A DNA stretch of 64,000 nucleotides, taken from NCBI GenBank assembly GCA_046563655.1, contig CM102287.1:5642001-5706000 (forward strand), read 5' to 3'. Position 1 is the stretch's first letter; every line of letters begins with the position of its first letter. The notes beneath the pieces were generated by a model. The model was not told where the DNA came from, searched no databases, and saw only the letters and a list, made by a program, of their open reading frames with translations. Below are positions 1 through 63,985 of the stretch, piece after piece. The position numbers were made by a program, and so were the translations under genes. The stretch is from Yuukianura sp. NJ FZ-2021 (lineage: Eukaryota).

Positions 1-349
1 TCCTCTTGGTTTATGCATGAGTTGACAGTTGAGAGAAAGGGGAGAAAGTTAGGAGTTGATTGGAAGAATCAAATGAATTGATTCCCTAATGTATTGATTT
101 TCGTTAAGTATGGACAGAATTTAGCTTAAACGTTTTGGCGATTTCGAAATCGCACGAGTCATAATTTTGTTATGAAAATGATTTGCCCTCAAAATCCATA
201 ATTTCTGGGGATTTCGTAATTGTGAGTGCCACAATTCTCCGATTTCTATCAAAATTTCGGGAAGTCCGTTGCCTTCTGATTCGGTCGAATTGTTTTTAGT
301 ATATGTTTTATTGTTTTATTTATTATATTTATTTATTTACTAATTTCAG

Positions 350-35564: not shown

Positions 35565-36014
35565 GACGTCCCTTCCCGGTCAAGCCGAACGCAACCGTAA
35601 TTCTCTTGTTTGTTTTAGTCTGATAAAAAACAAAACAAATATCCTGTAATTCACTAATCCAATTAGCTTTAGCTTTAAAGTAATTCACAAAGCACATAAA
35701 TTCTCGAATTGCTTATGCTTACACTTTTTTACGTTTTGATTGTAAAATCAAAATCCACCGGACAAAAATGACGAGAACGAACCGACGACGTGTACACTAG
35801 GCTGAACTGCATCGATTGACGAATTCGGCGGACAGTGATGGCAACGATGGTAAGACGATGGTTAGTCTTAGTGATCGACCAGTGATAAAAATTAAAACCC
35901 GAATAACCAATCAATCATCACATAAAGAATGAACGATTGATGATGAACGAAAGAGCCGAAATTAATTAAACTCTTGGCTAAAGTAGAGATTAACGAACAC
36001 CATAGTGTCACACG

Positions 36015-37174: not shown

Positions 37175-39396
37175 ATGAGTTCACACTCCAAGAAGAAAGT
37201 AGACGCGAAAGCGAAGATGAAGGAACCGGGGAAGGCGAATGGAAGGTCAACTGGACCCTTAACGTTTCGGCTAGATTCGTGTCTCAATTGTGAGATAGCG
37301 TTGGGTCAAGTAAGCTAACATTCAATAATAATAATATTATATTGTTATTAATATTCGTTTTATGGTTGAAGTAATTGCTTCTGACATTTATAATTCCGGA
37401 TTACCGGATTTTTCTTTTGGACATTACAGGGCACAACAAAGGTGGCCGAATTCATGCTGTCATTTTCAGAGACCAGTAAACGAACATTTTCTGTATTAGA
37501 AGCACTAACATCCATCTTCGAGCTTTCCGACACCAACAGCAAGTTCTTCCCAATGCTAACGTCGAAGAATCTTGTAATGTGTCCGAATTGTGCAACAGTA
37601 CTGGCCAATTTATACAAGTCATACGTAGAACTAATGCAGCTGTCGAGACCTACGGCCAACATATGTAAACTCGTTGTCAAAGCGGAGGTAATTGTTGTTT
37701 CAATTCTTTTTGTGTTAAAAGATTTGAAGAATTCACTATTTAATTTGACTTTTAATCCATTTAGAAATGGCACGACTCGAAACGGGACTTCTTGACCACC
37801 ACTTCCAACACAGCCCCTTCCCCATCAAGTGAAGATGATGACGATGAGGAGGACGAAGAAGACGATTCGGATTCTGAAGTAGAACAAAAGAAAAGAATCA
37901 AGAATGAAAGAAAAAGCGACGATGACGACGGCGAGGATGAGGACGAGGATGAATACATTGTACCGAATGGCAGGAGCGCTAGAAGTCGCGCTTCTGGATC
38001 TGCTGCTAAAACCAAGAAACGCAAGGCAGCAAGAGCCAGAAATGGTTTGTTGTCAATCACATACAGCTTACCAATTTAAATCCAATGCTTCTGGTGTTAA
38101 CCCGGAAGACTTTACGTCGAGAGTGATTGATTTATTTTGACATATCTTGTTTCAGGAAGTTATTATGATGATGATGAAAGTGATGAGGAATATCGCGGAC
38201 CAAAGCCGAAAAGGAAACCCCGTAGCTCACAGCCCAAGGGTACTGGACGCGTCGACAGAAGTAGAATACGCGAAAGAATCACACTAGCTCTCGACGGTAC
38301 ACCAAGAAAGCGAATTCGCAGACGACCATCTCAGACACGAGAAGACGATTACAAATGTCTCGAGTGTGACCGAATCTTCAAATTTGAATGTCGTTTGATC
38401 AAGCACATGAAGACACACTTGGAGAAACAGCGAACCCAATGTGAAAGCTGTGAAAAAACGTTTCCTTATTCCTGGATGTTGGAGAATCATGTTCTCGCTG
38501 ATCATGAACACGTCAAGCCCAAAGTCTGTAGCGTTTGCGACCTCGTGTTCTACAGAACAGAAATTCTTGAAAACCACTTCTGCACTCCGAAAGATCAACA
38601 GGCGGCTGAGAGAGCAGAAAAACCGCACCGATGTGAACTCTGTGGCAAGGCCTTCCAGAAACTGGCTCATTTGACACTCCATCTTCGTTCTCACGAAGAC
38701 GAGAAGCCTATGAAATGTCCCCACTGTGCCCAGAAGTTTAGATATGAAAAATGTCTCTCGAAGCACATGCAGGTTCATGAAACGGCACATATTTGTCCAC
38801 TTTGCCACAAGGAGTTCCAAGCAAAGTCAAAATTGAATACGCATATGCAGAGCCACGACGTGGAGAAGACCTATCCCTGTCCTAATTCAACTTGCGACAA
38901 AGTGTTTCGTCAGGCTACGGCTCTTCACCGTCACTTGAAGTCGCATGGTGGAGACGCAGGGGCTGGAGGTGACGAAGGAGTCAGATTTGGCTGTGACAAT
39001 TGCCCGAAATCATTCGGCCGGAAGTCGGATCTGAGTCGACATGTTCGTAACCAAGTGTGTATAAAAGAAGAGGGTGTGGGCAAAGGCGGGGATGATGAAG
39101 ACCAGGATGGAACGGACAAAGAAGCTACTTCTGATGAAGAAGAGGCTGAAGGTCAAGGTTCCGATGGAGATTCGATGTCGCCCGGAGTCAATTCGGATAA
39201 TGAGAATACTTTACCTTCATCTCCATCACCACTACCGTCTCCGCAGCTTAACCTTTCAGAAGAAGATTCCAATTCTGCACCGGCAGTAGCCTCTGTTACC
39301 AAAATTGAAAAAGTCGAAGGGGATGAGATTGTACTGGCAATGAAGAGCACTCCAACTCCGGTCGCAGATACGGACGATTCGTTTCTTTCCGAATAG
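37175..39396 (+). CDS. ZAD (zf-AD)-type C2H2 zinc-finger protein, ~637 aa
   Basis: Exons 37175-37309, 37430-37687, 37765-38044, 38156-39396. N-terminal CLNC...CPNC pair (ZAD-like), an acidic/basic linker with NLS-like runs, then 8 fingers (6 C2H2, 2 C2HC variants) and an acidic tail. The start codon is inferred; upstream 5'-UTR exons are likely (donor ACAG|GTAAGG near 36729). Confidence 0.85.
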
Positions 39397-44554: not shown

Positions 44555-44981
44555 TTAACCAAATAAATTGGCGAGATTTGGCAGCTCTAATTTAAATCCA
44601 GGAAGTCCACCAGGAAGTCCAGGATTGCCAAAACCGGAACTTTGAAACGAAGAACTTGAAGTAGCTGTGGCACCCCCACTGCTTTTTCCTGTTAACAAAA
44701 TTCCCAAACGAAAAATTCTGCATTTCAAAAATATTTTTTGAATATTAAAAAATGGTCAGCTATTTACCGTAAATAGTTGACGTGGCTCCATTGTGCGTAC
44801 AGTACCATACTGGACAGCATCCGTCGTCTCGTTCATATTTCGGAGTGCACTGAGCTCCTGGAAGAGGCGGTGAGCAACTTACGTTTGGACATTTTGATCC
44901 ATCGGCTCCACCAGCGTTAGGCATTCCAGTGGATCTGGCAGCCAGTACTCCGAACAAGAACAAAATCCAGAAAATCTGCAT
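44555..44981 (-). CDS. Small secreted 6-cysteine protein (VWC-like half motif), 115 aa
   Basis: Exons 44981-44768 and 44688-44555, with a 5'-UTR intron 45062-44982 (GTAAGT...CAG|ATG). Translation: MQIFWILFLFGVLAARSTG-MPNAGGADGSKCPNVSCSPPLPGAQCTPKYERDDGCCPVWYCTHNGATSTIYGKSSGGATATSSSFQSSGFGNPGLPGGLPGFKLELPNLANLFG*. Confidence 0.8.
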
Positions 44982-45508
44982 CTGGATGACATGACAGAAA
45001 CACTGAATTGTGTTTTCAAAGTTTACAAGATGGAGGACGGAAGTAAATTGGAAGTGACTTACCTTCACGAGACTCAATTTATGTCACTTTCTTCTGTATT
45101 GGCGTCCCATCCTAGTTTTTGAACCTTTGGCAACTCCCGTGGCTCTAAGTACGTCAATTAACCACCAGGAAACAGACATGGAGACAATGGGACATTAAAA
45201 ACTTAACTGCTACATTAGTTAACTACCTTCATCATTTCTAAATCGGAACGATTGATCACTGTTAATTCCGGAATTAGTACCCAGAAACTAGAAATTATGG
45301 ACAGAAATATCACATCCGGTTTTCAGAATCTTCCTACCAAAACTGTTGTTGCTACTGGCAACACCATTTGTTATCATGGAGTCTCACAAAAGCAAAATAC
45401 TGCTGAAGTTCATTCGAAATCTTTGGAATTCAAGGTCAAAGGTCACAAATCCTTCACATCACTTTCAATTTTTTTGTAGTAAATTGTATTCGAAAACTTG
45501 ACATCAAA

Positions 45509-48500
45509 ATGGAGGAGGAGTCCGAAGCAGAATCTCCACCACACCGACGATGCAAACGACTTGAACGACTGGCATATACTAAGAAGAGGACCAAAGCTCA
45601 GCTTATGGCAGCATGGGAACGTCCATTCCGTGAAGGCATTTCAGCATGCTTTTCTTCTGGATCCATTTTGGAAAAAACCGGATTTTTGTCAGCAAAGGAC
45701 CGCCGTGCAACAGCCACGTCCGTACTGTCAAGGGCTTCCAAATTACGCATGTCCGATGCAGACCGGAGGAGTACCGCGCTGTTTCGGTACTCGTCGTACC
45801 ACAGAAGCACATCATCCGGAATGAGCCGCTCTTCAGCACGACGGAAAAGCACGGCAAGTAGTAAAAGTATCGAAGAGCGGGAACGAATTGGCCGAATTAC
45901 CGAAAACATTGTGACTCCTACGCGGTATCGCCTTTGCCTCAAGCCGCACTTGGAGACACTTAAATTTGATGGATCAGTTTTGATCGAATTTGGACCAATG
46001 AGAAGCTGGGACAGTCAGGACAGTCTGGACAATCCAGCTCCTTTATTCTTGTCACGACTTGTGCTAAATGCTTTGGATCTTCATATTGAGAAGGTAGCTT
46101 GGGCTGACGAAACGACGATGGACCAACAAGAAGCCTCGAGTGTTGTCATGGACCGGAAAACGGAACGTGTGACACTGGAATTTGACAAGCCTGTGACACT
46201 TCCTGGAGTCTTGATTATCAACTTCTCGGGTCACATCTTGGAAGGAACGTCTGGATTTTATAGATCAACGGTAACTACGTCAACTGGACTTACGACATAC
46301 TGCGGAGTCACAAAATTTGAACCTACGTTTGCACGAAAATGTTTTCCGTGCTTGGATGAACCCGGAACGAAATCAAAATTTGATTTGAGTCTTATTCTTC
46401 CGAAACATTTAACAGCAATTTCAAATCAGGTTAGAATGTTTGAAAATGTTTCCGAATTTTGGAATTTTGAAACTTCAATTTTGGAATTTTGAAATTGCTA
46501 GCCAATTCAAGCAATCGTTCCTCATCGTACAAACACACATCTCCACGTGATTGAATTTGAACCAACTCCACCTATCGCACCACATCAGTTGACCTTTGCC
46601 ATAGGCGAATTTGAGGTCATCGAAGGTCACGCCGATTCGGCTCCAGATTTCGTCGACATCAAAATTCATACCAGCGGAAACAAAACCGGGAAAGCTCAGC
46701 TTGCTCTGGAATGTGCCCAAGCTTGCCTCGAATTCTATCACTTTTACTTTGAACTTCCGCTTGAAATGAGAAAACTTGACCTGCTCAGCTTGACCTCTCA
46801 TGTGGACTCTGGCGTGGGAAACTGGGGCGTAGCGACTTTTGCAGAAAATCAACTTCTGCAGAAACACGATGGTGACATTGAAGAGGGCGCTGACATAGCT
46901 CTCTTAGTTTCTCGTGAAGTTGCTCATCAGTGGATCGGAAGTCTAGTTGGCATTGATTGGTGGAGTCGACTGTGGCTCAGAGACGGTCTGGCTACACTTC
47001 TTGCATACATGAGCATCGACTATTTCGAACCAAAATTTCAAATTTGGCGGAAATTTGCTGGTGATGTAATGGCAAGGGCACTGGAAGCTGATGCTCTACG
47101 CAGTACACATTCACTTGAACCAATCGTCAGCTCTCCATTGGAAATCCAAACAATTTTTGACGACATTGCAAACGACAAAGGAGCAGCGATTATGAGAATG
47201 ATTCAGGGATTTGTTGGGGAAAAAACGTTTCAGACGGGAATTCAAACGTATTTGAAGCGATTTGGGTACAAGAGTGCCTCTACGGCAGACTTTCTTCTGA
47301 TTCTGGAAGAAGTTAGTGAGAAACCAGTGGCAACAATTTTCGAAACTTGGATCAAACGATCTGGATTTCCAATTATCAAAGTGGAGTCGTCGCAGCTTGA
47401 AACTGGCGGAGTTTCGCGTGTTGTGATCATCCGTCAAGAGCCGTTTGCGTTCTCCCTGGAACCGATTTATGCTACACCGAAGATGCGTCGTAGTGACAAT
47501 CACCGATGTCAGTGGATTATTCCGATTCATATGTCGCTGTCCAGTGCACCGTCGCAGCCTGTCAAGGAATTCATCATGGACAAGCCAGCACAAAAATTCA
47601 GAGTCAACGACACAAATCCAAATGACTGGTTCATGGTAAGCCTTTGGAATCCAGATTACTAAAAGTAATTCTAGAAGACTTAAAATTAGGTGTAATAGTG
47701 TTACTCCCTCCAGTTCAGCTACTTCTGTTTTAAAATTTGGCGAGAGTAACTGTTTAGCTGTAAACATGTTTGTCGAAGGTTGGCAGTTACTCCCTCTAGT
47801 TTATAAACTACCCCAAAGGCCTCGTTTGCTGACTGAAGGGAGTAACTATAAATATTTTAACTTCAAAAAAAAAATTTCCTACAAAAACTTCAGAGATTTC
47901 TTGGCTGGAGGGAGTAACTACTGGGAATAATTCACGATATGATTTTGTTTTTAAAGTTGAACCCGGGATTCGTTGGATTCTACCGTGTCAAGTATCCACC
48001 AGAAATGATTGGAAAGTTTTTGAAAGCAATTCGTCTGAAGCAATTTGCACTGGAAGATCGACTGGGACTTTTGAATGACCTCCACGCTCTGACCTCAGTT
48101 GGCGTATCCACCACAATGGAATTGTTCACAATGCTGGAATCATTTGTAGACGAAGATGAGTATTTAGTTTGGAAAGAAATCAACTCCGTTGTTGCAAGTC
48201 TCGACCTTCTGCTGCAAAGTGACGAATGTTACCCAAAATTCAAACTTTTTTCACAAAACGTTTTTCGTAAAATCCATGCAAAACTGGGATGGAAGGCCAA
48301 AGCAGATGAAAGTTCAGCAGATAAAAAGTTGCGCTTGATGGTTCTTCAGCGTCTGCTTCGATTTGGGAAGAAAACGTGTGTGGAAGAAGGATATCGACAG
48401 TTTCGTCAATGGCTGAATGGGGCGAGCATCGAATTGCCCCAAATTGCATTTCAGGCTGGAATCGCTGATTCCGAAAACCACGACGAAGTTTTCCGAACTC

Positions 48501-49041
48501 TTGTCCGGGTATGCTAACTTTTTTTTTGTTCAAAACGAAGAATTTGAACATTTTTGTTCCAAAAGTGTACTGAAAAACCTTTCTTTTCTAGCATTTCAAA
48601 GACTCGAAATATTTTAAAGAAAAAGCAGACATCATTCAAAGTTTTGGATTTGCTGAAACCGAAGAAGCCATCATGGCAATTTTGGATTTTACAGTCTCCG
48701 ACGTAGTTAATACTGAAGAGACTGTTGTGATCATGGACGGTCTAATGCAAAACGCTATTGCGAAACCACTTGCTTGGACGTTTTTCAAAAACCATGTTGC
48801 GGTTTTTCAAAAACGATTTCACGGAGTAAGTGATTTGGAAGGTAAACTGATTCAAACTGTGACAAAGTACTTGGCCACTTCAGCCAAGCCTTCAGACGTG
48901 GCAACTTTCTTCCAACGTCACAATTTCAATGGAACTGAAAATATTGTTCAAGAGAGTTTAGACAAAATGAAGTTGTATGCTGCGTGGTTCAAGCGAGACA
49001 AGCAACAAATTGAAGAGTACTTGGGTCCTTACGAAGACTAA
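45509..49041 (+). CDS. M1-family (puromycin-sensitive aminopeptidase-like) protein with degenerate catalytic motifs, ~1018 aa
   Basis: Exons 45509-46429, 46502-47635, 47957-48508, 48592-49041 (3057 nt, open frame). M1 hallmarks: VTPTRYRL, GFYRS, FEPTFARKCFPCLDEP, AISN, WIKRSGFPII, LNPGFVGFYRVKY and an ERAP1-C-like tail. GAMEN reads GVGN and HExxH-x18-E reads RExxH-x18-D. No signal peptide or TM segment seen. Confidence 0.9.
47700..47918. mobile_element. MITE-like inverted-repeat element in aminopeptidase intron 2
   Basis: Perfect 14-bp inverted repeat GTTACTCCCTCCAG (47700-47713) / CTGGAGGGAGTAAC (47905-47918), with an inner inverted pair AGTTACTCCCT / AGGGAGTAACT. This intron (321 nt) is much longer than the gene's other two (72 and 83 nt). 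Confidence 0.6.
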
Positions 49042-52000
49042 AAAACTATGTTTCAAAAACCTACTTTTCATTGTTGAACTTTTACTTCAAAATTCCTTGT
49101 TTGTTGATTACTTCGCTGAATTTCAACATTCAGTAAATTATTGCTCTTTTTTCATTTAATGAATTTTTCCTTATTTCGAAACTTATTTTTGGACAACCGT
49201 GGGAAATAAATGAAATTACCAAAACAAAAATATCCGCACCGTTAAAACTGCTGTATAAAAAATAGTTCACTATTTGTTAGTATAAACTTCACTTTTTAAT
49301 TCAAGGTGACATGAAGTGACGCTCAGAGGATGGATGACAAAGTTCAATCTATCTCGATCTATACACGTATCTGGATTTTTATCTTGAAAATGGAGGTGTC
49401 GTAAGGATTGATTTGTAAGTGTTAATCAATTTCATTTTTTCATGATATGATTTCAGTAGTTAATCATACGTCCTTCATTTGCTGGGCGAAGTCAAAAAAT
49501 TACGTTTCAGATTTTATTCCATTTACTAGCTAAGTATTCGTCATGAATAAGGAAAACAGGCTTTTCATTTCATTTCTTATTTGCAATGCCCTGATTGGTG
49601 GAGCAGTTGGGCAATACGATACTCCGTTCCTTGGCAAAGTTTATGGCGACACAGATCCAGTAGGGGTTGTTGTGAATCCCGACGGATATTCAATTTTCAT
49701 CTATGAAAACAGAGTGGTGGCAGCCGAGAGAAACTACGTAGCGGAAATTAAATACACTGGTAACATAAAAATTTTTGGTCAAGGGACACTAGATGTTAAA
49801 AAAAAATTGTAACTTCAAAAAATCCTAATAATTTTTGAAAATTATTGAAAATTTGAAAAGGGACTGACGTGCCCACTGTTTCGCTCATTGAGGGAACTGG
49901 AACTAAACCTGAATTGCGAATCGTTAGAGATGCAAATGTTGGTGGAAAATTTTTCCTGGAACTTTTAAATCAACTGGATTATGAAAACCGTGGGGCGGGT
50001 ACTTGGAGCATACAACTGGATCCGAAAGCTCCGAATTCCTTCATAGTGTCTCCACTTGACATCGACGACATGTAAAACAATCGAAACGAGCTTTACCTTA
50101 ACATTTTGAATAACTTATGTGTTTCAAATTTTTGTTTTTGAAGGGACCCTTTCTTCACAGAGTATGCGCTGACGGCACTAAAGGCAGATGAAGGAGACTT
50201 TAGCAGCGACAAAGTTTTGTTCACTTACAAAGCTACCGATCCAGATACGGTTGATGTGGGGAAACTAGCATACGCTCTAACGGTAGACATCAAATAATAA
50301 AAAAAACGAAACAAAACGTTTAGGTTACGTGGCGTGAATTCTTAAATTTGATTGAAATACATTCAGGATTTAGATAATGGCGCCAACACGCCATTTGTTA
50401 TCGACTCCATTACTGGGGAACTGAGACAGACAGCGGCATTGGACTACCAACTTCAATCAGTTTATAGGCTCCAAATGACCGTGACAGATTCCGATGGGGT
50501 TAACGCCATGCCTGCACCTTCGGTTACTTTAGTCAATGTCAATGACCTTCCGAACCAACCTCCGCGGTGGGTATCGGTCAACCCCGTCCTTCAAGTTGCA
50601 GAAAACAACGATCCTAATACAGTAAGGATGCCAGAGCAAGAACTAAATTACACTGTGTAACTTACTACGTATGAAATATTTTTAGGATCCGGCAGTGTTC
50701 AAGTATGGCGCAGTCGATGGAGACACGATGGTCAACAGTCCAATGAAATACTACCTGGAGGGCGGTAATGTATAAGATGTTTTAAAATTTCAAATTTTTT
50801 CAAAAATTGGCTTCCGTTTGATTTTGTAACATTAAGCAATCGGTTTTCTTGATTTTAGTTCCGGTGGATCCAATAAGTTCTACTCCGTATTTGACAATCG
50901 GCGAAGCTTCCGGAGAAATCCGAGTGAATGTAGTCTTGGATGCTGAACAAATAGAAGATTCGACATTCACTTTTCAAGCTGTGGCAGAGGAAGTGATCAA
51001 TACCGTTCCGAATTTGAAAATTAAAGAAACCGTTACGTTTTTCATTTTGGACCAAAACGATAACCTTCCTATATTTGATGACGGAGAGTCTGAGAAACCG
51101 TTTCAAGTTGTAATTGATGAGAACACTTCCGGTTCACTACCGGGCTTGGAGGAACTGATTATCATTGACAAAGACAGGGTTAGCCAATTTTAATATAAAT
51201 TAAGAGGAATATGCTTATTGTTGTGTTCTGGCGAACAGGATTTGGCGTATAGTGAATATGTAGCAAGGTTGAAGGCAGATGACCCCGACACGGAAGTGTG
51301 GGTGAACGAAATGTTTTCAGTGACTCCGTCAAAGGGTTATGGCGGCGGTACTTTTGTGGTTCAAATTAAGCCCAGTACGGTTATCAACTATGAAGATGCA
51401 CAATGGCAGAAACCCATACAATTTTATGTCACTGTAGAAGAAGCCAGTGACCCTCAACGATTCGCTAGAGGAGCGATTTCATTGACAGTGAAGGTAACTT
51501 CAATGCAACTACTAATTCTCATTCTACATTTGCTAGCCAATCAGGTTTCGAGTTAATTGGTCATCAATTTGTACGTTCCATTTGTAACCTCTAGGATTTG
51601 AACGACAACAGCCCGGTATTTGGTGGAGTCGACGCAAACGGAGAAATCGTAGTTGAAGTTTCCGAGGGGATTCTGATTGGTCAAACTGTTACGACAATTC
51701 TTACCACTGACGCAGACATTTCCCCAGGATTTGGAACAGCCAGCATTAGGTAATTCTAAATACTAATCATTTTTAACTTTTGATATGATTTTCAATGAGC
51801 GACATGTTGCATCAAAAAAATTTCAGATTTCCGAAATTGAAAATTTGAAATGAAATTTTGAAATCCTTTTAATTTGAAATTCCAGATACTTTTGGGGTGT
51901 ACCAGCACCTAACGACTTGGCAATCGATGAGGTCACTGGCATAATTACGACCAAAACAAACTCCCCGTTTGACCGAGAGTTGATGCCACAAGAGGTGTAC

Positions 52001-55000
52001 ATTGTAAACGCAATTGATTCTGAAAATGCGCCAAACGCACGAAAGACGTCTACAATTCAGCGATTCGTCATACAGGACGTTAATGATGAACCACCACTCA
52101 TTACCGCGGTAAAATCGGACTAAATACTGAAAAACTTTCAGTATCATTTTGTATCACATTACGATTTTGTTTGTTTTTGAAGACTTCGCGTCAAATTACA
52201 ATTCAAGAAAACACAGAACTGGATTTCGTTTTCGAAGGAATTCAAGTGACCGATCCAGACGAAAAGCCTGATTTGGAGATTGAGTGTACTGTTGGGGGAC
52301 CTACTGAGACTCAAGGGTTTGTGTCAATGTCACCTTTGATTTTTTTTTGAAAAATGTTTCAAGTCGTAATTTTGAATTTGGAAATTTTAGTTGGTTTAAA
52401 TGTGAAAGCACGAGACATGAACCCGGTGGAATGTTGATGGCCAAGATTCTTCTTGCTGGTATTGAACTTCCGGACTACGAAATGACAAACAGGGTGGACA
52501 TTGAAATGAAGGCATCTGATGGTGTCCATTCCTCTATTGAAGTGTTTACCGTCTTTATTACAAATTTGAACGACGAGTATCCAGTTTTTGATGAGATTGG
52601 AGAAATTTTCTACACAGAAACAGAAGCTTGTGTTGGAAATGACTGCGAAAGTGAAAGTAGACGTGAAATTCATCAGTTCCGTGTACAAGATAAGGACTCT
52701 CCACCAAGCGAAATTGAATTCAGCATAACGTAAGATTTCAACGAAAATTCAAAACATTTTCAACAGAAATTCTCATTCCTTCCCGAATTTGGCCATTTTA
52801 GATCCAAGGTTCCTGGAACTCTTGATTTGGTTGAAATCAATCCAACCAGCGGCATTTTAAGCCGAAAAGTGGGGGCGGTGATTGACCGTGAAAAAACAGA
52901 CATCCTGTATATCGACGTAACTGCACATAACCTCATATGTGACGACAATGGTTGCACTCATGACCCAATAATATTTACAACTGAAGAAGACGTAAGTTTT
53001 TATTATTTCGAATAAATGTGGTTTTCAATACAGCGTTTCTATTTGAGTAAATCTATATTTAGGTACCGATTAACATTGAGGATATTAACGACGAGTTTCC
53101 AGTTTTCGAGGATAGTCCCACTGAATTTACAATAGAAGAGAATGAATCGAGCGGTGACATTCACCAATTCGTTGCAACAGATAAGGACGAGGGTTAGAGA
53201 AAAAAATCACAGTAGTGTTCCACAAAATATCAAAAAAAAATCAAGTATTGTGAAATTTTGCAGGAAGATTTGGACAAGTAATTTATTTTTTGGATGAAAA
53301 TTATTTGGAGGGACACGGCCTTGACAAATTTGAGATCAACGAAAACACAGGCGTGTTGTCAATTAAGGCACAGCTTGACCGTGAAACGGATGCGCAGTAT
53401 GGACTTCGTATTGTGGCTCGAGACAACGGAGGCAGTCAAAGTAACTTTCACAATTGAATTTACAACAAAAAAAATCTAAACTGTACTCTTGACTATTTTA
53501 AAATTTAAAAATTTGAAAGGTAATTCCAATGATGGCGAGAGATTTATCACCATTTTGATTAAGGATGTGAACGACAATGCAGTAAGTACTGCTATTTCTT
53601 TTATGACTAATTGTTTTGTATTGAATTTCACGTTGACAGTATGTCACCAATTCGTTCTTTTTTAGCCACAAATCTCAAATTTTGAGTTTCATAGTCAATT
53701 TGAGGACCAAATTTCACCAGAAATGGAATTGGGAAAGCTTCAATTACACGGTATATTTGACTTGGAACTTTTTAAACACAAATTCAAGAAACACCTTAAT
53801 TTTTTTTTTAAATCTAGATATCGATGAACCGGATACCCAGAATTCTCTCGTTGGCGCCGAATTAATTGGCGTAACGTATGTAGATTGTCCGAATTGTGAT
53901 ATGCTGATGATGAATTGGAGGGATCACTTTGAGGGTTTGTTCGAGGGTGCAACAAATACGTTCAGAATTTACGCCAAAACGAATTTGTACCCGTATTTTG
54001 GAAAGTACAGCTTTGAAATTTTCGTAAGCACAGTTATAGATTTTGGATTGAATTATGGAAACATATTGAGCTAACATTGTCAATAGGCCTACGATTACGG
54101 TACACCGATGGCTCACTTTACTGATACAGTTGGTCCATTCGAAATTACTGATGTCAACGATCATACGTAAGATTTAGAAATTTTGGAAAATATAAGTCCA
54201 AATCCGAAAATTTTGAAAGTATTATAATATTTTGTTTGCTCTTAACTGTAGCCCAGTTGTATTCTTTCCCACGGCGAACGAAAACACGCATGTGTACATT
54301 GCTGAGGTAAGTCTACTACAACAGGAACAGTTTCAGTTTGGCCTAACCCTTGCTGTCAGGTTAAACTAAATTCTGAATGTAATATTGAAAGTCATACTAA
54401 TATGACCGTATTATAATAATATTAATAATATTAAGTTATATTATTATACTCAAATACTATTTCATTTCTCTTAGAATCATCCAATACTGGGCCAAGGTAA
54501 CGACGTTGCCGCTAGGTTGACGGAGTGGGACAATATACAAGTACGTGCATTAGCAGGCGATGACCTCGGTAACATGAATTTAATTTAAAGTTTTAAACTT
54601 TTTGTTAAGAAAATATTGACAAGGATGATTTTGAATTTTGTTGTTTAAATCGTTTCAGACGATCCAAACCTTGGAAATGGTCAAATCACGTTTTTGGTTG
54701 ATCCAAATGGAGAGGGTGAGTTATCGATTACGTCTTATAGTGTTTGCTGGACAATAAGGGTTAAGTACTCAACTAACAAATTTTAAATTAAATATATATG
54801 TTTATTTGTACTACACAAAAAGACCAACTTTTAGCTTAATTATAATTACAGTATTCGATCCTAAAACGCTTTGTTCACTTTACAATAGGATACGAATACT
54901 TTGTCGTTGTTCCCGGCGATGAGGACGGAATATTTTATATAGCAGTCAAGGCCCAACTGGTTGTAGACGAACAAGGGGTACCGTTGCGGGTAAGTTAACA

Positions 55001-56220
55001 TATTTTTAAAAAAATTAATTCTGTTTCGAATTTTAAAAGTTTTTATTTTTCAAAATTTTCATTTTAGGTAGGAATTATTGCGAAAGACAATGGAGCTGCT
55101 CCGAGACAATCAGAGCCACAGATAATGCTCATCAGCGTCGTACCTGAATCCAACCAAGAACCAATATTCGTTGGAGAAAATGCTCAAGTACACATCCAAG
55201 GTTTACGCTTTAGTCATTATACGCTACTGTAAAACATGTTTCCAGTTCACTGTTCACTGGTTGAATTTTTAGTATAATAATTTTGAATATAATTAATATA
55301 AATAACTCTAATTTTAGAAAATGCAACTCTGCCAGCACCGATTGTTCTACTGGCAGCTTCCGACCTGGACACAATTGGAGACGCACCTCTGGACCGCTTT
55401 GGAAACGACATTTGTTACTACATTATAGGTATACAAATTTCAGTTTTTAGTTAGAAAGCACGATTTTTTGTGCATGATATCGATTATTATATTTTGTATT
55501 TTATGTTTCTAGCTGGTGACACGACGCAATCGTTTCAATTGGACCCGTACACGAACAAGCTGACTTTAAAACAAGGAATAGTCCTGGATCGCGAGCAAGT
55601 TCCTACGTACCAATTATCAATTCTGGCTAAGAACGACAAACCAAATGCTTGCCAACCTCCTACTACCATACCTCCGCTGGACTCACCCAGTGTTCTCAAT
55701 GTCCAGATCATCGTAGATGACGTCAAGGACACTGCACCTCGGTTTGTTGACCTTGGTACTTGTTCTGGCGGAGTTCGTACCTCTACAGCAGAAATCGGCA
55801 GCTCAACTTCTATTGTTCTGCTGGGCGAAGAGGATGACCTCAATGACCCCACCACGTTTACCATCGATGACAAAACACTTGAAAGATCAGATCCATCGCT
55901 AGCTGGAATCCAGGATCCTGTTTTTACAATCAGCGAAACTAACGAAATTCTGATCAACTTCCAAGCTAATGAAGCTATGAAGGGATACTTTACGTTTACG
56001 GTATTCCTGACAGATTCTGGTAAGCATCAAACAGCAAATTTTCCTCGGCTTGTCAACTTCTGCTTTTAAGCTTTACCAAATTATGCACTCTGAGACCAAA
56101 ATTTTGAAATTTTGTTTGTAGTTGGAATGCTAGCAACTCAAATGTGTAAAGTGTATCTCACTCACGAGCACGACTCCATATAACTACGTTGAATTTCAAT
56201 TTGACGATGGTTATGAAGAA
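48986..56220 (+). repeat. Tandem segmental duplication, copy A (~7.2 kb)
   Basis: Runs from the last ~56 nt of the aminopeptidase CDS through the intergenic region and cadherin exons 1-26. Colinear and near-identical by eye, including most introns, with 56225-63530. Confidence 0.95.
49543..56183 (+). CDS. Cadherin paralog 1 (BtR1/Cad88C-like), C-terminally truncated and predicted secreted, ~1458 aa
   Basis: 26 exons with canonical GT-AG sites and a continuous frame (4377 nt): 49543-49759, 49861-50071, 50144-50282, 50367-50621, 50686-50764, 50859-51178, 51239-51493, 51595-51749, 51886-52108, 52183-52316, 52391-52729, 52802-52991, 53063-53192, 53264-53440, 53520-53581, 53666-53750, 53818-54023, 54087-54166, 54252-54306, 54475-54568, 54659-54715, 54889-54989, 55068-55200, 55318-55428, 55513-56019, 56122-56183. 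Signal peptide and ~12 EC repeats (LDYE/LDRE, DxD, DxNDxxP motifs). Ends VYLTHEHDSI* with no TM. Confidence 0.85.
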
Positions 56221-56224
56221 GACA

Positions 56225-56280
56225 GGTTCAAGAGAGACAAGCTACAAATTGAAGAATACTTGGGTCCTTACGAAGACTAA
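56225..56280 (+). pseudogene. Duplicated 3'-terminal fragment of the aminopeptidase CDS
   Basis: GGTTCAAGAGAGACAAGCTACAAATTGAAGAATACTTGGGTCCTTACGAAGACTAA matches 48986-49041 (FKRDKLQIEEYLGPYED* vs FKRDKQQIEEYLGPYED*). It is followed by a copy of the 3' UTR with AATAAA at 56450-56455 (original at 49205-49210). Confidence 0.92.
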
Positions 56281-59200
56281 AAAAATATGCTTAAAAAAAC
56301 TACTTTTTCATTGTTGAATATTTACTTCAAAATTCGTTGTTTGTTGATTAATTTACTTCGCTGAGTTTCAACATTCAGTAAATTATTTATCTTTTTTCTT
56401 TTAACGAATTTTTTCTAATTTCGAAACTTACTTTTGGACAACCATGAGAAATAAATGAAATTACAAAAAAAAAATATCCGCACCGTGAAAACTGCTGTAT
56501 AAAATAGGTCACTATTTGTTAGTACAAACTTCACTTTTAAATTCAAGGTGACATGAAGTGACGTTCAGAGGACGGATGACAAAGTTCAATCTAATATCTC
56601 GATCTATACACGTATCTGGATTTTTATCTTGAAAATGGAGGTGTCGTAAGGATTGATTTGTAAGTGTTAATCAATTTCATTTTTTCATGATATGATTTCA
56701 GTAGTTAATCATACGTCCTTCAGTTGCTGGGCGAAGTCAAAAAATTACGTTTCAGATTTCATTCTATTTAGAACATTTCGCAATGAATAAGGAAAACAGT
56801 CTTCTGATTTTGCTTCTTATTTGCAACGCTCTGATTGGTGGAGCCGTTGGCCAATACGAAACGCCGTTCCTTGGCAAAGCTTATGGCGACACAGATCCAG
56901 TAGGGGTTCATGTGAATCCCGACGGAAATTCAATTTTCATCAATGAAAACAGAGTGGTGGCAGCCGAGAGAAACTACATCGCGGAAATTAAATACACTGG
57001 TAACCTAAAAAAAAATTTCGATGATGAAAAAATGAAAACTGGATTTTTTAAAATTATATTTTCCGAAATCCTAATAATTTTTGAAAATTTTTGAAAATTT
57101 GAAAAGGAACTAACCCGGAAGTGCCCACTGTTTTGCCCATTGACGGAACTGGAGTTAAACCTGAATTACGAATCGTTAAAGACTTGGCTCTTGGCAAATT
57201 TTTTCTGGAACTTTTAAATGAATTGGATTATGAAGACAAAGGGATTTGGTACATTAACTTGGATCCAACAGCTCCTGCGCCTATCTTAGTAGCTCCAGTT
57301 GACATTGACGACATGTAAATCAAATTAATCGACCTCAGCTAGGTTAAATTAACCTATCGTATTCTTAAATGCTTTTAATACAACATTGGCTTTGTTTTTG
57401 AAGGGACCCCTCCTTCACGCAATATGCGACTGCACTAGACTCAGATGAAGGGGACTTTAACAGCGACAAAATTTTATTCACTTATAAAGCGACCGATCCA
57501 GATACGGTTGATGCGGATAAACTAACATACGCTCTAACGGTAGACATGAAACCATTAAAAAAACGAAACATTTAGGTCACGTGACGTGACTTTAAGTAAC
57601 TCACGATTTAAATTCGATTGAAATACATTCAGGATTTAGATAATGGCGCCAACACGCCATTTGCCATTGACTCGACTACTGGGGAATTGAGGCAAACAGC
57701 GGCATTGGATTACCAACTTCAATCAGTTTATAGGCTCCAAATGACCGTGACAGATTCCGATGGGGTTAACGCCATCTCTGCACCTTCAGTCACCTTAGTC
57801 AATGTCAATGACCTGCCGAACCAACCTCCGCGGTGGGTATCGGTCAACCCCGTCCTTCAAGTTGCAGAAAACAACGATCCTGCTACGGTAAGGATTACAC
57901 AGGAAAAACTAAATTAACCCGCATAACATGAAATTTTGTTTAGGATCCGGCATTGTTCAAGTATGGCGCAGTCGATGGAGACACGATGGTCAACAGTCCA
58001 ATGAAATACTACCTAGAGGGCGGTAATGTTCAAACTGTTAATAATTTTCAACTTTTGTCAAAATTGTTTATCTTTTGATTTTGCAACATTAAGCAATCGG
58101 TTTTTTTTTATTTAAGTTCCGGTGGATCCAATAAGTTCAACTCCGTATTTGACAATCGACGAAGCTTCCGGAGAAATCCGAGTAAACGTAGTCCTGGACG
58201 CTGAACAAATAGAAGATTCGACATTCACTTTTCAAGTTGTGGCTGAAGAAATGATCAACACCGTTCCGAATTTGAAAATTCAAGAAACCGTTACGTTTTT
58301 CATTTTGGATGAAAACGATAACCTGCCTATATTCGATGACGGACAGTCTGAGAAACCGTTTCAAGTTGTAATTGATGAGAACACTTCCGGTTCTCTGCCG
58401 GGATTGGAGCAACTGATTATCATTGACAAAGACAGGGTTGGACAATTTTTGAAATTTTGTGTAAATTATGGGGAATGCTTATTGTAATGCGTTTTGATGA
58501 ACAGGATTTGGCGTATAATGAATATGTGGCAAGGTTGAAGGCTGATGACCCCGACACGGAAGTGTGGGTGAACGAAATGTTTTCAGTGACTCCGTCAAAG
58601 GGTTATGGCGGCGGTACTTTTGTGGTTCAAATTAAGCCCACTACGGTTATCAACTATGAAGATCCAGAATGGCAGAAACCTATACAATTTTATGTCACCG
58701 TAGAAGAAGCCAGCGACGCTACACGATTCGCCAGGGGAGTGATTTCGTTATCAGTCAAGGTAATTTTATAAAGTTAAAACTTATTTTTCATTCCAATTTT
58801 GCTAGGTGAAGCTAGCCAATCAGGTTTTGCTCATGAATTTGTACGTTCCATTTGTAACCTCTAGGATTTGAACGACAACAGCCCGGTATTTGATGGAGTC
58901 GACGCAAACGGAGAAATTGTAGTTGAAGTTTCCGAGGGGATTCTGATTGGTGAAACTGTTACGACAATTCTTGCCACTGACGCAGACATTTCCCCAGGAT
59001 TTGGAACTGCGAGCATTAGGTAATTCTAAATACTAATCATTTTTAAGTTTTGATACGATTTTCAATGAGCGACCTGCTGAATCCAAAAAATTTCAGATTT
59101 CCGAAATTGAAAATTTGAAATGAAATTTTGAAATCCTTTTAATTTGAAATTCCAGATACTTTTGGGGTGTACCAGCACCGAACGACTTGGCAATCGATGC

Positions 59201-62200
59201 GGTCACTGGCATAATTACGACCAAAACAAACTCCCCGTTTGACCGAGAGTTGATGCCACAAGAGGTGTACATTGTAAACGCAATTGATTCTGAAAATGCG
59301 CCAAACGCCAGAAAGACGTCAACAGTTCTGCGACTCGTCATACTAGACGTTAATGATGAACCACCACTCATTACCACGGTAAGATCGGACTGAAATCTGA
59401 AAAACTTTCAGCAACAATTTGTTTCAAATTACGATTTTGTTTTTTTGAAGACCTCTCGTCAAATTACAATTCAAGAAAACACAAAACTGGATTTCGTTTT
59501 CGAAGGAATTCAAGTGACCGATCCAGACGAAAAGCCTGATTTGGAGATTGAGTGTACTGTTGGAGGACCTACTGAGACTCAAGGGTTTGTGTCAATGTCA
59601 CCTTTGATTTTTTTTCGAAAAATGTTTCAAGTCGTAATTTTGAATTTGGAAATTGTAGTTGGTTTAAATGTGAAAGCACAAGGCATGAACCCGGTGGAAT
59701 GTTGATCGCGAAGATTCTTCTTGCTGGTACTACTGAAACTGAACTGCCGAACTACGAAGTGACAAACAGGGTGGACATTGAAATGAAGGCATCTGATGGT
59801 GTGCAGTCTTCGGTTGAAATGTTTACCGTCTTTATTACAAATTTGAACGACGAGTATCCAGTTTTTGATGAGATTGGAGAAATCTCCTACACAGAAACAG
59901 AAGTTTGTGTAGGAAACGACTGCGAAAGTGAAAGTAGACGCGAAATTCATCAGTTCCGTGTACAAGATAAGGACTCTCCACAAAGCGAAATTCAATTCAG
60001 CATAACGTAAGTTCAACTCAAAATTCAAAACATTTTCAACAGAAATTCTCATTCCCTCCCGAATTTGGCCATTTTTAGATCCAAAGATCCTGGAACTCTT
60101 GATTTGGTTGAAATCAACCCAACCAACGGCATTTTAAGCCGGAAAGTGGGGGCCGTGATTGACCGTGAAACAACAGCTACTTTGCACGTCGACGTAACTG
60201 CACACAACCTCATATGTGACGACAATGGTTGCACTCATGACCCAATAATATTCACAACTGAAGAGGACGTAAGTTTTTAATATTTTGGATAAATGTGGTT
60301 TTCAACACAGCGTTTCAAATTTTATTTGAGTAAATTCATATCTAGGTACCGATTAACATTGAGGATATTAACGACGAGATTCCAGTTTTCGAGGATAGTC
60401 CCACTGAATTTACAATAGAAGAGAATGAATCTAGCGGTGACATTCACACATTCGTTGCAACAGATAAGGACGAGGGTTAGAGAAAAAATTTACAGTAGTG
60501 TTGTACAAAATAGCGAAAAAAAAATCAATTATTGTGAAATTTTTGCAGGAAGATTTGGAGAAGTAGTTTACTTTTTGGATGAAAATTATTTGGAGGGACA
60601 CGGCCTTGACAAATTTGAGATCAACGAAAACACAGGCGTGTTGTCAATTAAGGCACAGCTTGACCGTGAAACGGATGCGCAGTACGCACTTCGTATTGTG
60701 GCTCGAGACAACGGAGGCAGTCAAAGTAACTTGCACAAATTTCATTGAATTTTCAACAAAAAAAAATCCAAACTGTAACTCTTTACTAATTTAACATTTA
60801 AAAATTAATTTGAAAGGTAATTCCAATGATGGGGAGAGAATTATCACCATTTTCATTAAGGATGTGAACGACAATGCAGTAAGTACTGCTAATTTCATTT
60901 CATTACTAATTGTTTTGTATTGAATTTCACGTTGACAGTATTTCACCAATTCGTTCTTTTTTAGCCACAATTCTCAAACATTGAGTTTCCGAGTAAATCT
61001 GAGGACCAAATTTCACCAGAAATGGAATTGGGAAAGCTTCAACTAAACGGTTATTTGACTTTGAAATTTAAAACTTAAAAAGAAATTTTTAAAAACTATT
61101 AGAAGAATCACTTAATTTTTGAAAATATCTAGATATCGATGAGGCGGATACCCCGAATTCCCTAGTTGACGCCGAATTAGTTGGCGTAACGTATGTAGAT
61201 TGTCCGAATTGTGATATACTGATGATGAATTGGAGGGATCACTTTAAGGGCTTGTTCGAGGGTGCAACAAATACTTTCAGAATTTACGCCAAAACGAATT
61301 TGTATCCGTATTTTGGAAAGTTCAGCTTTGAAATTTTTGTAAGCACAGTTATACATTTTAGTTTGATTCGGCATTTTATGGAAACATATTGAGCTAACAT
61401 TGTCAATAGGCCTACGATTACGGTACACCGATGGCTAACTCTACTGGTACAGTTGGTCCACTCGAAATTACTGATGTCAACGATCACACGTAAGATTTTC
61501 AAATTTTGGAAAATATAAGTCCAAATCCGAAAATTTTGAAAGAATTATCATATTTTTTTCCTTGTAACTCTAGCCCAGTTGTATTCTTTCCCACGGCGAA
61601 CGAGGCCACGCATGTGTACATTGCTGAGGTAAGCCTACAACAGGAACAGCTTGAGTTTGACCTAACCTTTGCTTTCAGATTAAACTAAATACTGAATATA
61701 ATATTGAAAGTCATACTAAATATCATATGACCATATTATAATATTAATAGCATTAACTATATTATTATATTCAAATATTTCATTTCTCTTAGAACCATCC
61801 AATACTGGGCCAGGGTAACGACGTTGCCGCTAGGTTGACGGAGCATGACAACACACAAGTCCGTGCATTAGCAGGCGATGACCTCGGTAAGTTGAATTTA
61901 ATTTAAAGGTTTAAACTTTTTAGCCGTTAACAGAATATTGACTAGGATGAGTTTGAATTTTGTTGTTTAAATCGTTTCAGACGATCCGAACCTTGGAAAT
62001 GGTCAAATCACGTTTTTGATTGATCAAAATGGAGAGGGTGAGTTATCAATTACATCGTAGAGTTTACTGGACAATAAGGATTAAGTACTTAACAAATATT
62101 AAATTAAATATTATATGTTTATCTTTATATGTACTATATAAAAAGACTAACTTTTAGCTTAACTACAGCATGCGATCGATCGTTAAGCGCTTTGTTCACT

Positions 62201-63530
62201 TTACATTAGGATACGAATACTTTGACGTTGTTCCCGGCGATGAGGACGGAATATTTTACATAGCAGTCAAGGCCCAACTGGTTGTAGACGAACAAGGGGT
62301 ACCGTTGCGGGTAAAACTCGAAAAATTTAATTTTGAATTTTAAAATTAAGTTTTTACTTAAAAATTTTTGTTTTAGGTAGGAATTATTGCTAAAGACAAA
62401 GCCGCTCCTCCGAGACAATCAGAGCCGCAGATAATGCTCATCAGCGTCGTACCTGAATCCAACCAAGAACCAATATTCGTTGGAGAAAACGCTGAAGTAC
62501 ACATCCAAGGTTTGGCACGCTTTAGTCATTATAAGCTGTAAAAACACGTTTCCAGTTCACTGTTCACTGGTTGAATTTTTAGTATAATAATTTTGTATAT
62601 AATTAGTATAACTAACTTCAATTTTAGAAAATGCAACTCTGCCAGCACCGATTGTTCTACTGGCAGCTTCAGACCTGGACACAATTGGAGACGACCCTCT
62701 GGACCGCTTCGGATATGACATTTGTTACTACATTATAGGTACGCAAATATCTGTTTTTAGTTAAAATAGAATACGATTTTTTGTGCATATCGATTATTTA
62801 TGTATATTATATTTTGTATTTTATGTTTCTAGCTGGAGACACGACGCAATCGTTTCAATTGGACGAGTATACAAACACGCTGACTTTAAAACAAGGCATA
62901 ATCCTGGATCGCGAGCAAGTTCCTACGTACCAATTATCAATTCTGGCTAAGAACGACAAACCAAATGCTTGCCAACCTCCGACTACCATACCTCCGCTGG
63001 ACTCACCCAGTGTTCTCAATGTCCAGATCATCGTAGATGACCTCAAGGACACTGCACCTCGGTTTGTTGACCTTGGTACTTGTTCTGGCGGAGTTCGTAC
63101 CTCTACAGCAGAAATCGGCAGCTCAACGTCTATTGTTCTACGGGGCGAAGAGGATGACCTCAATGACCCCATCACGTTTACCATCGATGACAAAACACTT
63201 GAAAGATCAGATCCATCGCTAGCTGGAATCCAGGATCCTGTTTTTACAATCAGCGAAACTAACGAAATTCTGATCAACTTCCAAGCTAATGAAGCTATGA
63301 AGGGATACTTTACGTTTACAGTATTCCTGACAGATTCTGGTAAGCATCAAATAGCAAATTTTTTGCATCTTGTCAACTTCTGTTTTTAGTTTTAACAAAA
63401 TTATGCACTCTGAGACCAAAATTTTGAAATTTTGTTTGTAGTTGGGGAGGAGGCAACTCAAATGTGTAAAGTGTACCTCACTACTCCAGACAACTACGTT
63501 GAATTTCAATTTGACGATGGTTATGAAGAA
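56225..63530 (+). repeat. Tandem segmental duplication, copy B (~7.3 kb)
   Basis: Colinear with 48986-56220. Homology ends after GATGGTTATGAAGAA (63530), beyond which only this copy continues into the membrane-proximal and TM exons. Confidence 0.95.
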
Positions 63531-63985
63531 TTCACTGACTCAATTATATCCCAAGTAGAAACTATCATGTCTGAAAACTATGGATACCTCTGCAACATTG
63601 ACAAAGTACGCAACACGACTGATGAAAATGGAAACGCATTTGCTGGAAAAACAACAATTGAGACACACTTTATCGATGAAAGCAAAACCGAACCTGTCCC
63701 GAGCTACTTAATTACGGAGTAAGCTCTAACTTTTTTAAGCTTTTGTATATTAATTGACGTTAACTTTTTAAATTTATTTAGTCTACCATACGATGAACCT
63801 GAAAAGTTCATTAACCTCACAGCGGCTCTCCAAGATATTGGACTCAACCTGGACATAAAATCATACTATGAAGAACCGGTAGATGAAACACAAGGAATTT
63901 TGACCTACATTCTCGTCGGAGCTGTAATAGTTCTCACAATCGTCGTTGTCATTGTTTCAGTCAGTTGCTGGTTCAACTCTAGACG
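56783..63985 (+). CDS. Cadherin paralog 2 (BtR1/Cad88C-like, membrane-anchored); 3' partial, cytoplasmic tail beyond the window
   Basis: Same exon series as paralog 1, then a full membrane-proximal domain (VYLTTPDNYVEFQF...YGYLCNIDKV...IETHFID, resembling the CNIDQV...HFI motif of lepidopteran BtR1-type cadherins). Exon 63782-63985 encodes the TM helix ILTYILVGAVIVLTIVVVIVSVSCWF and ends at a GTAACT donor. Confidence 0.9.

Follow-up and report, generated by a model that had tools for sequence, protein, structure and literature searches.

A partial tandem duplicate of a cadherin gene keeps a constrained ectodomain frame without a membrane anchor in Yuukianura sp.

Cadherins of the AgCad1/BT-R type have been studied above all as receptors whose loss gives resistance to Bacillus thuringiensis (Bt), and truncating cadherin alleles confer such resistance. 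AgCad1 is described as a Cry4Ba-binding cadherin, a fragment of which synergises toxicity (PMC8402332), and, among fly genes, Cad88C as the one closest to lepidopteran Bt-R, with 17% identity (PMC9977296). Among the titles listed by our literature searches, none reported a tandem paralog of a BT-R/AgCad1-type cadherin devoid of a transmembrane (TM) segment. Here, we describe a pair that is probably of this kind in Yuukianura sp. NJ FZ-2021, in a stretch of 64,000 nucleotides (nt) of assembly GCA_046563655.1 (contig CM102287.1, positions 5,642,001 to 5,706,000), which we call the window and within which all positions are given. Two cadherin genes lie there head to tail. We demonstrated the structure of this locus, the junction that created it, the intact reading frame of its upstream, anchor-less copy (paralog 1, or copy 1) and the constraint acting on this copy; the downstream copy (paralog 2, or copy 2) possesses the TM helix.

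Structure and junction of the duplicated unit

A preliminary description, made from the sequence alone, had proposed a tandem duplication of a cadherin gene, and this duplication is real. Indeed, it is recovered by blastn (88.9% identity over 7406 columns, with 147 gap openings between the two units given in Table 1), by global MAFFT alignment (91.0% identity over 7147 aligned pairs) and by a repeat search, which returned 18 direct-repeat families of two copies each, spaced by 7240–7327 nt; moreover, every base of its junction is resolved. The unit begins within the final coding exon of the upstream M1 aminopeptidase, and its right breakpoint, at 63530, falls in cadherin exon 26. Directly behind the filler GACA, from 56225 on, the last 56 coding bases of the aminopeptidase are repeated (GGTTCAAG...GAAGACTAA), together with everything 3' of them. 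The locus hence presents the characters of a partial tandem duplicate, or chimeric new gene: a head-to-tail arrangement, a defined junction, intragenic breakpoints, and a 5' copy having both a promoter region and an open frame.

Both genes were modelled with a splice-aware dynamic programme combining codon bias, splice scores and inter-copy conservation, and five places were corrected from homologous splice sites. The coding sequence of paralog 1 (4377 nt) is interrupted by 25 GT..AG introns of 60–173 nt and contains no internal stop. The boundaries of exons 1–25 are homologous in all 25 copy-1/copy-2 pairs, and the only length differences of copy 1 from copy 2 concern exons 2 and 3 (-3 each) and exon 11 (+9). 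Nine linkers of the D-x-[ND]-D-x-x-P type, spaced by about 110–125 amino acids (aa), are found in each copy. By hydropathy, the signal-like N-terminal segment is the sole hydrophobic segment of copy 1, which has neither a TM helix nor a hydrophobic C-terminus. The gene model thus agrees with what had been described earlier for paralog 1, i.e., a signal peptide, about 12 cadherin repeats, 25 intact GT-AG introns, an open frame, and indels in multiples of three in exons 2, 3 and 11. Together with the hydropathy analysis, it also agrees with an end at VYLTHEHDSI without TM, the TM being carried by paralog 2.

The C-terminus of paralog 1 reads ...KVYLTHEHDSI and stops directly behind the last cadherin repeat. 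In a 19-sequence alignment, KVYLT, the last residues shared by both copies, corresponds to the final strand of this repeat, and the sequence that follows it in copy 2 aligns to the PCDH15_12th-like region (Pfam) of an Anopheles protein (P0113). Copy 1 therefore keeps all of the repeats, without the membrane-adjacent domain, the TM helix and the tail. Searched against Pfam, the membrane-proximal exon 26 of copy 2 and its counterpart in the outgroup described below matched no family. At the start of the copy-1 stub of exon 26 (56126–56135), five nucleotide differences fall within two codons, which read EE in copy 2 and ML in copy 1; they lie 30 nt before the 10-nt insertion and resemble a complex mutation event.

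The stop codon of paralog 1 is reached through this 10-nt insertion. Read in the alternative frame, the sequence stays open through the junction (...NYVEFQFDDGYEE-DR-FKRDKLQIEEYLGPYED, then a stop), and this is the aminopeptidase's own frame followed by its own stop. Since the pre-insertion frame runs into the aminopeptidase tail, the duplication would first have given a chimeric tail in frame, both its stop codon and its 3' flank being borrowed.

The polarity of these changes could be read from an outgroup. A metagenome scan with the single query P0002 found no relative; with the alignment A2 as query, it found one contig (L001, positions 1–4250) that carries orthologous exons 23–27, has its introns at identical places and conserves the TM; exon 25 of this contig is 54% identical to that of the window. 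This contig is the full-length form with the TM and has the frame of copy 2; hence, both the truncation and the 10-nt insertion are derived. Compared by eye with it over exons 23–27, about four changes are copy-1-derived and two copy-2-derived, over a stretch too short for a branch test.

Constraint on paralog 1

Between the two copies, the exons differ at 289 of 4303 positions (p = 0.067), with five gap events that are all multiples of three, and the introns at 310 of 2202 (p = 0.141), with 45 gap events, of which 34 have lengths not divisible by three. The pairwise Nei-Gojobori estimates are 0.161 for the synonymous distance (dS; the intron distance, 0.156, is nearly the same) and 0.046 for the nonsynonymous distance (dN), i.e., a dN/dS ratio (omega) of 0.289, with a bootstrap confidence interval (CI) of 0.228–0.374; 1302 of the 1434 aligned residues are identical. 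The ratio is low in each segment (0.28 for exons 1–7, 0.26 for exons 8–15 and 0.33 for exons 16–25). Had copy 1 evolved neutrally from the split on, pairwise omega would have a floor of about 0.5, a value that lies above the upper limit of the interval and is thereby excluded.

Counts of disabling changes lead to the same result. At intron-derived rates, a neutral copy 1 should have accumulated 12.5 nonsense changes and 33.3 frameshifts in exons 1–25 (about 46 in all) and 7.8 hits in its splice dinucleotides; none of either kind is observed, and 25 of 25 splice-site pairs are intact. Placed against 17 distant outgroups, the 130 usable amino-acid differences divide into 55 copy-1-derived, 41 copy-2-derived and 34 ties (p = 0.18), and, when only sites conserved in half of the outgroups or more are counted, 5 are derived in copy 1 (two of them in the frameshifted tail) and 6 in copy 2. 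By the ratio, by the lack of disabling hits and by the absence of a significant excess of copy-1-derived replacements, the earlier view of paralog 1 as a maintained coding sequence and not a dead copy is supported.

Polymorphism was read from contigs derived from four sequencing runs of two studies (X1 to X4), which are fragmented. The X4 contigs come from the other study and carry another organism label, whereas X1–X3 may derive from the assembled sample and hence are not independent of the window. All 12 indels listed (out of 71) lie outside exons, and the 13 variants in copy-1 exons (found among the 40 of 730 substitutions listed) comprise 8 missense, 5 synonymous and no nonsense changes.

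Copy 1 was also considered as a processed or decaying pseudogene. This candidate was rejected on the figures given above for exons 1–25, the splice pairs and omega (0.29), the frameshift being found only in the terminal stub.

Competing explanations for the open frame

Paralog 1 is probably a maintained gene for a secreted 12-repeat cadherin ectodomain, which would be transcribed, exported and active outside the cell. A series of observations, set out here and in the next paragraph and joined by the mix of missense and synonymous changes among the few listed copy-1 exon variants given above, weighs against this reading. The divergence between copies is a mosaic over the 25 introns (chi2 = 113.8, p = 1e-13), with about 0.19–0.23 in introns 1–7, 0.07 in introns 8–15 and 0.13–0.14 in introns 16–25, and a stretch of 75 nt, the longest over which introns are identical, was matched in 15 of 5000 permutations. 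Contigs of X2 and X4 pass from one copy to the homologous position of the other (joints within 49815–62814), with forward skips of about 7.29–7.33 kb and backward joints of 7.24–7.31 kb; they may be mosaic haplotypes, generated by gene conversion or unequal exchange, or contig chimeras. Gene conversion is active and adds to the similarity of the copies in parts of the unit, so that copy 1 could be pictured as a non-functional partial duplicate, its frame kept open by being reset from copy 2; among the 13 listed variants in copy-1 exons, the 4 that carry the copy-2 base point the same way. However, the least homogenised segment, exons 1–7 (intron Jukes-Cantor distance 0.27, dS 0.24), shows an omega of 0.28 (CI 0.20–0.40) and no disabling change, against 7.8 nonsense changes and 16.1 frameshifts (about 24) expected for copy 1 under neutrality. 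As these exons are intact despite being the least homogenised, conversion alone does not explain the open frame; the 25 intact intron boundaries and the derived replacements, which are not significantly skewed to copy 1, also speak against a relic, and we regard this explanation as quite unlikely. The intergenic region of the unit is more alike between copies than the introns (33 of 493 mismatches against 310 of 2202, Fisher p = 3e-6). Upstream of the ATG, a 100-nt block is identical in both copies and intron 1, beside it, is 25% diverged; this block is either a conserved core promoter or 5' untranslated region element, or a recent conversion tract. A milder departure is indicated by the longer protein branch of copy 1 (0.077 versus 0.043, FastTree), a hint of some relaxation, and by exons 1–3, the fastest part, whose dN is 0.128 and whose omega of 0.42 has an interval (0.25–0.68) that includes 0.5. 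Apportioning dN by the branch ratios, without a fitted model, suggests an omega of about 0.33–0.37 for copy 1 and 0.21–0.25 for copy 2, i.e., a mild relaxation that stays far from neutrality. As for the assembly itself, the sample is strongly polymorphic (its contigs differ by 1–5% from the window), and two divergent haplotypes of a single gene might have been set in tandem. But the junction is a specific chimera of cadherin exon 26, GACA and aminopeptidase tail, and record 15 of the X2 contigs (56002–56498) bridges it, extending 219 nt to one side and 274 nt to the other; record 27 of X4 (56191–56496) reaches across as well, with 30 nt to the left of the filler where our rule asks for 31. Moreover, copy-specific sequence for both copies is present in both studies (in X4, which leaves 3 of 30 bins without cover, a copy-1-specific contig at 50082–50615 and several copy-2 contigs), and the 9–11% divergence has a coding-aware pattern. 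Mis-assembly of haplotypes is thus very unlikely to be the source of the tandem pair, and we give it an almost negligible probability.

The end of paralog 1 raises a different difficulty for a secreted product. The exon-26 stub evolves like an intron, with its 9 mismatches in 52 positions, the cluster of five differences in two codons and the 10-nt frameshift, and could be an exon that goes unused instead of a dispensable tail. Moreover, the sole canonical AATAAA behind the stop, borrowed from the aminopeptidase, is not fixed: A>G variants at 56451 and 56455 occur in contigs of X1, X2 and X4, that is, in both studies. Both facts would be accounted for if copy-1 exons 1–25 were joined by read-through splicing to copy 2 instead of being translated as a truncated protein, which would also explain why exons 1–25 are constrained together with the decay of the stub. 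Two routes can be drawn: from copy-1 exon 25 to copy-2 exon 26, giving an alternative ectodomain on shared membrane-adjacent, TM and cytoplasmic exons, in a variable/constant-like manner; or from copy-1 exon 25 to copy-2 exon 2, giving a membrane cadherin of about 24 repeats. The two joins are in frame, copy-1 exons 1–25 amounting to 4315 nt (phase 1), copy-2 exon 1 to 217 nt, so that exon 2 takes phase 1, and exon 26 offering the homologous phase-1 acceptor. On the other hand, the stub has an intact acceptor (TTGTAG) only 102 nt away from the donor of exon 25, the alternatives being 1.1 and 7.4 kb off; a duplicated 3' flank with its AATAAA follows the stub, and copy 2 has a conserved upstream region of its own. 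Read-through splicing appears to us unlikely. Within the preferred reading of a secreted ectodomain, one may further speculate that paralog 1 acts as a decoy for, or a modulator of, ligands for which the membrane paralog is the receptor, be they pore-forming toxins or of microbial origin. Paralog 1 keeps all repeats, the last two included, without an anchor; the family includes Cry-toxin-binding cadherins, among them AgCad1 according to PMC8402332; and the fastest divergence lies N-terminally, in exons 1–3. However, the relatives are only 24–28% identical, so that receptor function is not transferable, and the soluble fragment in the work cited raised toxicity and did not block it (PMC8402332). 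This sub-case is a speculation that we hold to be very doubtful.

The proposed history of the locus would begin with a non-homologous tandem duplication of 7.24 kb, whose left break fell in the last coding exon of the M1 aminopeptidase and whose right break fell in exon 26 of an AgCad1/BT-R-type cadherin gene. The upstream partial gene formed in this way, paralog 1, would have retained its promoter region, a signal peptide and the full set of roughly 12 repeats, but would have been without membrane-adjacent domain, TM helix or cytoplasmic tail from the outset. Its frame would at first have continued in phase into the copied aminopeptidase tail and have acquired there a stop codon together with a 3' flank, until an insertion of 10 nt shifted the stop to directly behind the last repeat. 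Purifying selection would since have kept exons 1–25 and all splice sites, while gene conversion now and then took place between the two copies. We take a soluble, secreted 12-repeat ectodomain, acting extracellularly beside the membrane-bound paralog 2, as the most likely product.

Relatives, neighbouring genes and comparison with known systems

Both copies belong to the cadherin superfamily (PF00028). This domain scored above the cut-off in three of the five cadherin open reading frame (ORF) chunks (50352–50660, 55455–56069 and 62739–63389) and in two of 16 copy-1 exon translations (exons 4 and 14), exon 25 lying slightly below it (28.6 versus 28.8 bits). With exon 25 as query, a word-index protein search scored 0 of 854 candidates, and an exhaustive HMMER search over 1.84 billion representatives returned 91 proteins at E <= 1e-3, of which 20 clusters were looked up for names. 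The named relatives are a "cadherin-AgCad1" of Penaeus, "cadherin-23-like" proteins of mosquito, wasp, copepod and Limulus, and a "Cadherin 2" of Anopheles; further relatives, from beetle, cricket, sandfly, ostracod and myriapods, bear assorted automatic names. Copy 2 aligns end to end with several of the named ones in single high-scoring segment pairs, at 24–28% identity; with the Penaeus protein, one such pair covers query positions 1–1556 (27% identity, E = 1e-84).

In a tree, copy 2 falls in a clade of insect cadherins of 1500–1730 aa, apart from the cadherin-23/"Cadherin 2" clade, and pairs with the Penaeus "cadherin-AgCad1" (support 0.848), a placement to be read with the names being automatic, the identity being 24–28% and the set lacking Manduca BT-R1, Anopheles AgCad1 and Drosophila Cad88C. 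From sequence comparison, the gene is thus probably of the AgCad1/BT-R kind, only distantly. The lepidopteran BtR1 setting in which the preliminary description had placed it is not supported: the nearest named relatives are pancrustacean, namely the shrimp "cadherin-AgCad1" and insect "cadherin-23-like" proteins, at the identity just given, and no lepidopteran protein was present among the 20 clusters looked up.

Upstream of the cadherin pair (Table 1), the aminopeptidase gave search matches of at most 33% identity. By eye, its ORF has no N-terminal signal-like segment and ends in ...EEYLGPYED without a hydrophobic tail; it therefore looks unlike a toxin receptor of the aminopeptidase N (APN) type, anchored by glycosylphosphatidylinositol. 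The UNC5-like gene extends over about 26 kb, with introns that are long compared with the 60–173-nt introns of the cadherin genes.

Table 1. Positions of the features of the window
Feature	Position	Strand	Description	Basis
Paralog 1 coding sequence	49543..56183	+	26 exons, 1458 aa; signal-like N-terminus, about 12 modules of cadherin-repeat length, no membrane-adjacent domain, no TM	gene model, hydropathy, linker motifs, Pfam
Signal-peptide-like N-terminus of paralog 1	49543..49614	+	MNKENRLFISFLICNALIGGAVGQ; hydropathy window KD 1.61; cleavage AVG/Q by rule of thumb	
Exon 26 stub of paralog 1	56122..56183	+	encodes (V)GMLATQMCKVYLTHEHDSI, then stop; 9/52 mismatches to copy 2, intron-like	
10-nt insertion relative to copy 2	56163..56172 (placement ambiguous by a few nt)	+	frame shift leading to TAA at 56181-56183	alignment; the outgroup contig has copy 2's frame
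AATAAA	56450..56455	+	duplicate of the aminopeptidase 3' signal at 49205; sole canonical hexamer after the paralog 1 stop	
Duplication unit, copy 1	48986..56220	+	last 56 nt of aminopeptidase coding sequence, 3' flank, cadherin promoter region, cadherin exons 1-25 and part of exon 26	blastn, alignment
Junction filler GACA	56221..56224	+	between cadherin exon 26 (...GGTTATGAAGAA, end 56220) and the duplicated aminopeptidase tail	
Duplication unit, copy 2	56225..63530	+		blastn
Duplicated aminopeptidase coding tail	56225..56280	+	FKRDKLQIEEYLGPYED, then stop; in frame with paralog 1's pre-insertion frame	ORF 56134-56280, alignment
Block identical in both copies (100/100)	49342..49441 (homolog about 56587-56686)	+	100 nt long; 100-200 nt upstream of the ATG	
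Paralog 2 coding sequence, part inside the window	56783..63985	+	27 exons, at least 1599 aa, continues past the window	
Paralog 2 exon 26	63442..63718	+	most of the membrane-proximal domain missing from paralog 1; aligns to the PCDH15_12th-like domain of P0113	
Paralog 2 TM helix	63897..63974	+	ILTYILVGAVIVLTIVVVIVSVSCWF; exon 27, outside the duplicated unit; mean hydropathy 3.07; conserved in the outgroup contig L001	
Upstream M1 aminopeptidase (visible exons)	45407..49041	+	last coding exon 48592-49041, ending in ...WFKRDKQQIEEYLGPYED, then stop	Pfam Peptidase_M1_N, Peptidase_M1, ERAP1_C; ORF list
UNC5-like netrin-receptor gene	7389-33675	+	I-set, two TSP1, ZU5, UPA, Death	Pfam
Tfb4-like exon	35331-35579	-		Pfam
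Multi-C2H2 zinc-finger ORF	38131-39396	+	421 aa	Pfam
Small Cys-rich ORF	44760-45083	-	no Pfam match	

Compared with AgCad1/BT-R-type cadherins, paralog 2 displays within the window the expected architecture, i.e., a signal peptide, about 12 repeats, a membrane-proximal domain and a single TM, its tail lying beyond the window. Paralog 1 differs by lacking the parts by which the receptor form is defined, namely its membrane-proximal domain, TM and cytoplasmic tail. If paralog 1 is indeed a maintained secreted protein, this anchor-less copy would constitute a natural experiment on a soluble receptor ectodomain, the value of which is limited by the non-model host and by the low identity to characterised receptors. 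A bolder proposal is that an arthropod kept a secreted, full-ectodomain Bt-receptor-type cadherin as a soluble decoy or modulator of gut-lumen ligands (e.g., pore-forming toxins), born with the stop and terminator of its neighbour, or that the locus is a first step towards a variable-ectodomain/constant-tail arrangement; we consider this proposal clearly improbable.

TM-less or truncated products of broadly similar cadherins are also known from Bt-resistance alleles and Cry-synergist fragments. Those are loss-of-function alleles of a single receptor gene, or laboratory peptides, whereas we deal here with an extra gene copy that stands beside an intact receptor-type gene and has been under long-term constraint. 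The locus also recalls those of the clustered protocadherin type, in which tandem ectodomain blocks with their own upstream regions precede TM and tail exons, and its phases are compatible with such a use. But each variable region of the clustered protocadherins is a single exon including its own TM, while the present locus consists of two blocks of 25 exons.

The partial and chimeric tandem duplicates reviewed in PMC3449122 as a source of new genes share with this locus a head-to-tail arrangement, two intragenic breakpoints, a 5' copy with its promoter, and a foreign 3' sequence providing stop and terminator. The difference is that the recruited tail came here from the upstream neighbour, in frame and inside the same unit, and was apparently replaced later through a 10-nt insertion. 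The locus thereby offers an unusually clear case of gene birth by partial duplication, in which the breakpoints, the filler, the in-frame capture of a stop and a 3' flank, and the trimming 10-nt change can all be read in the sequence.

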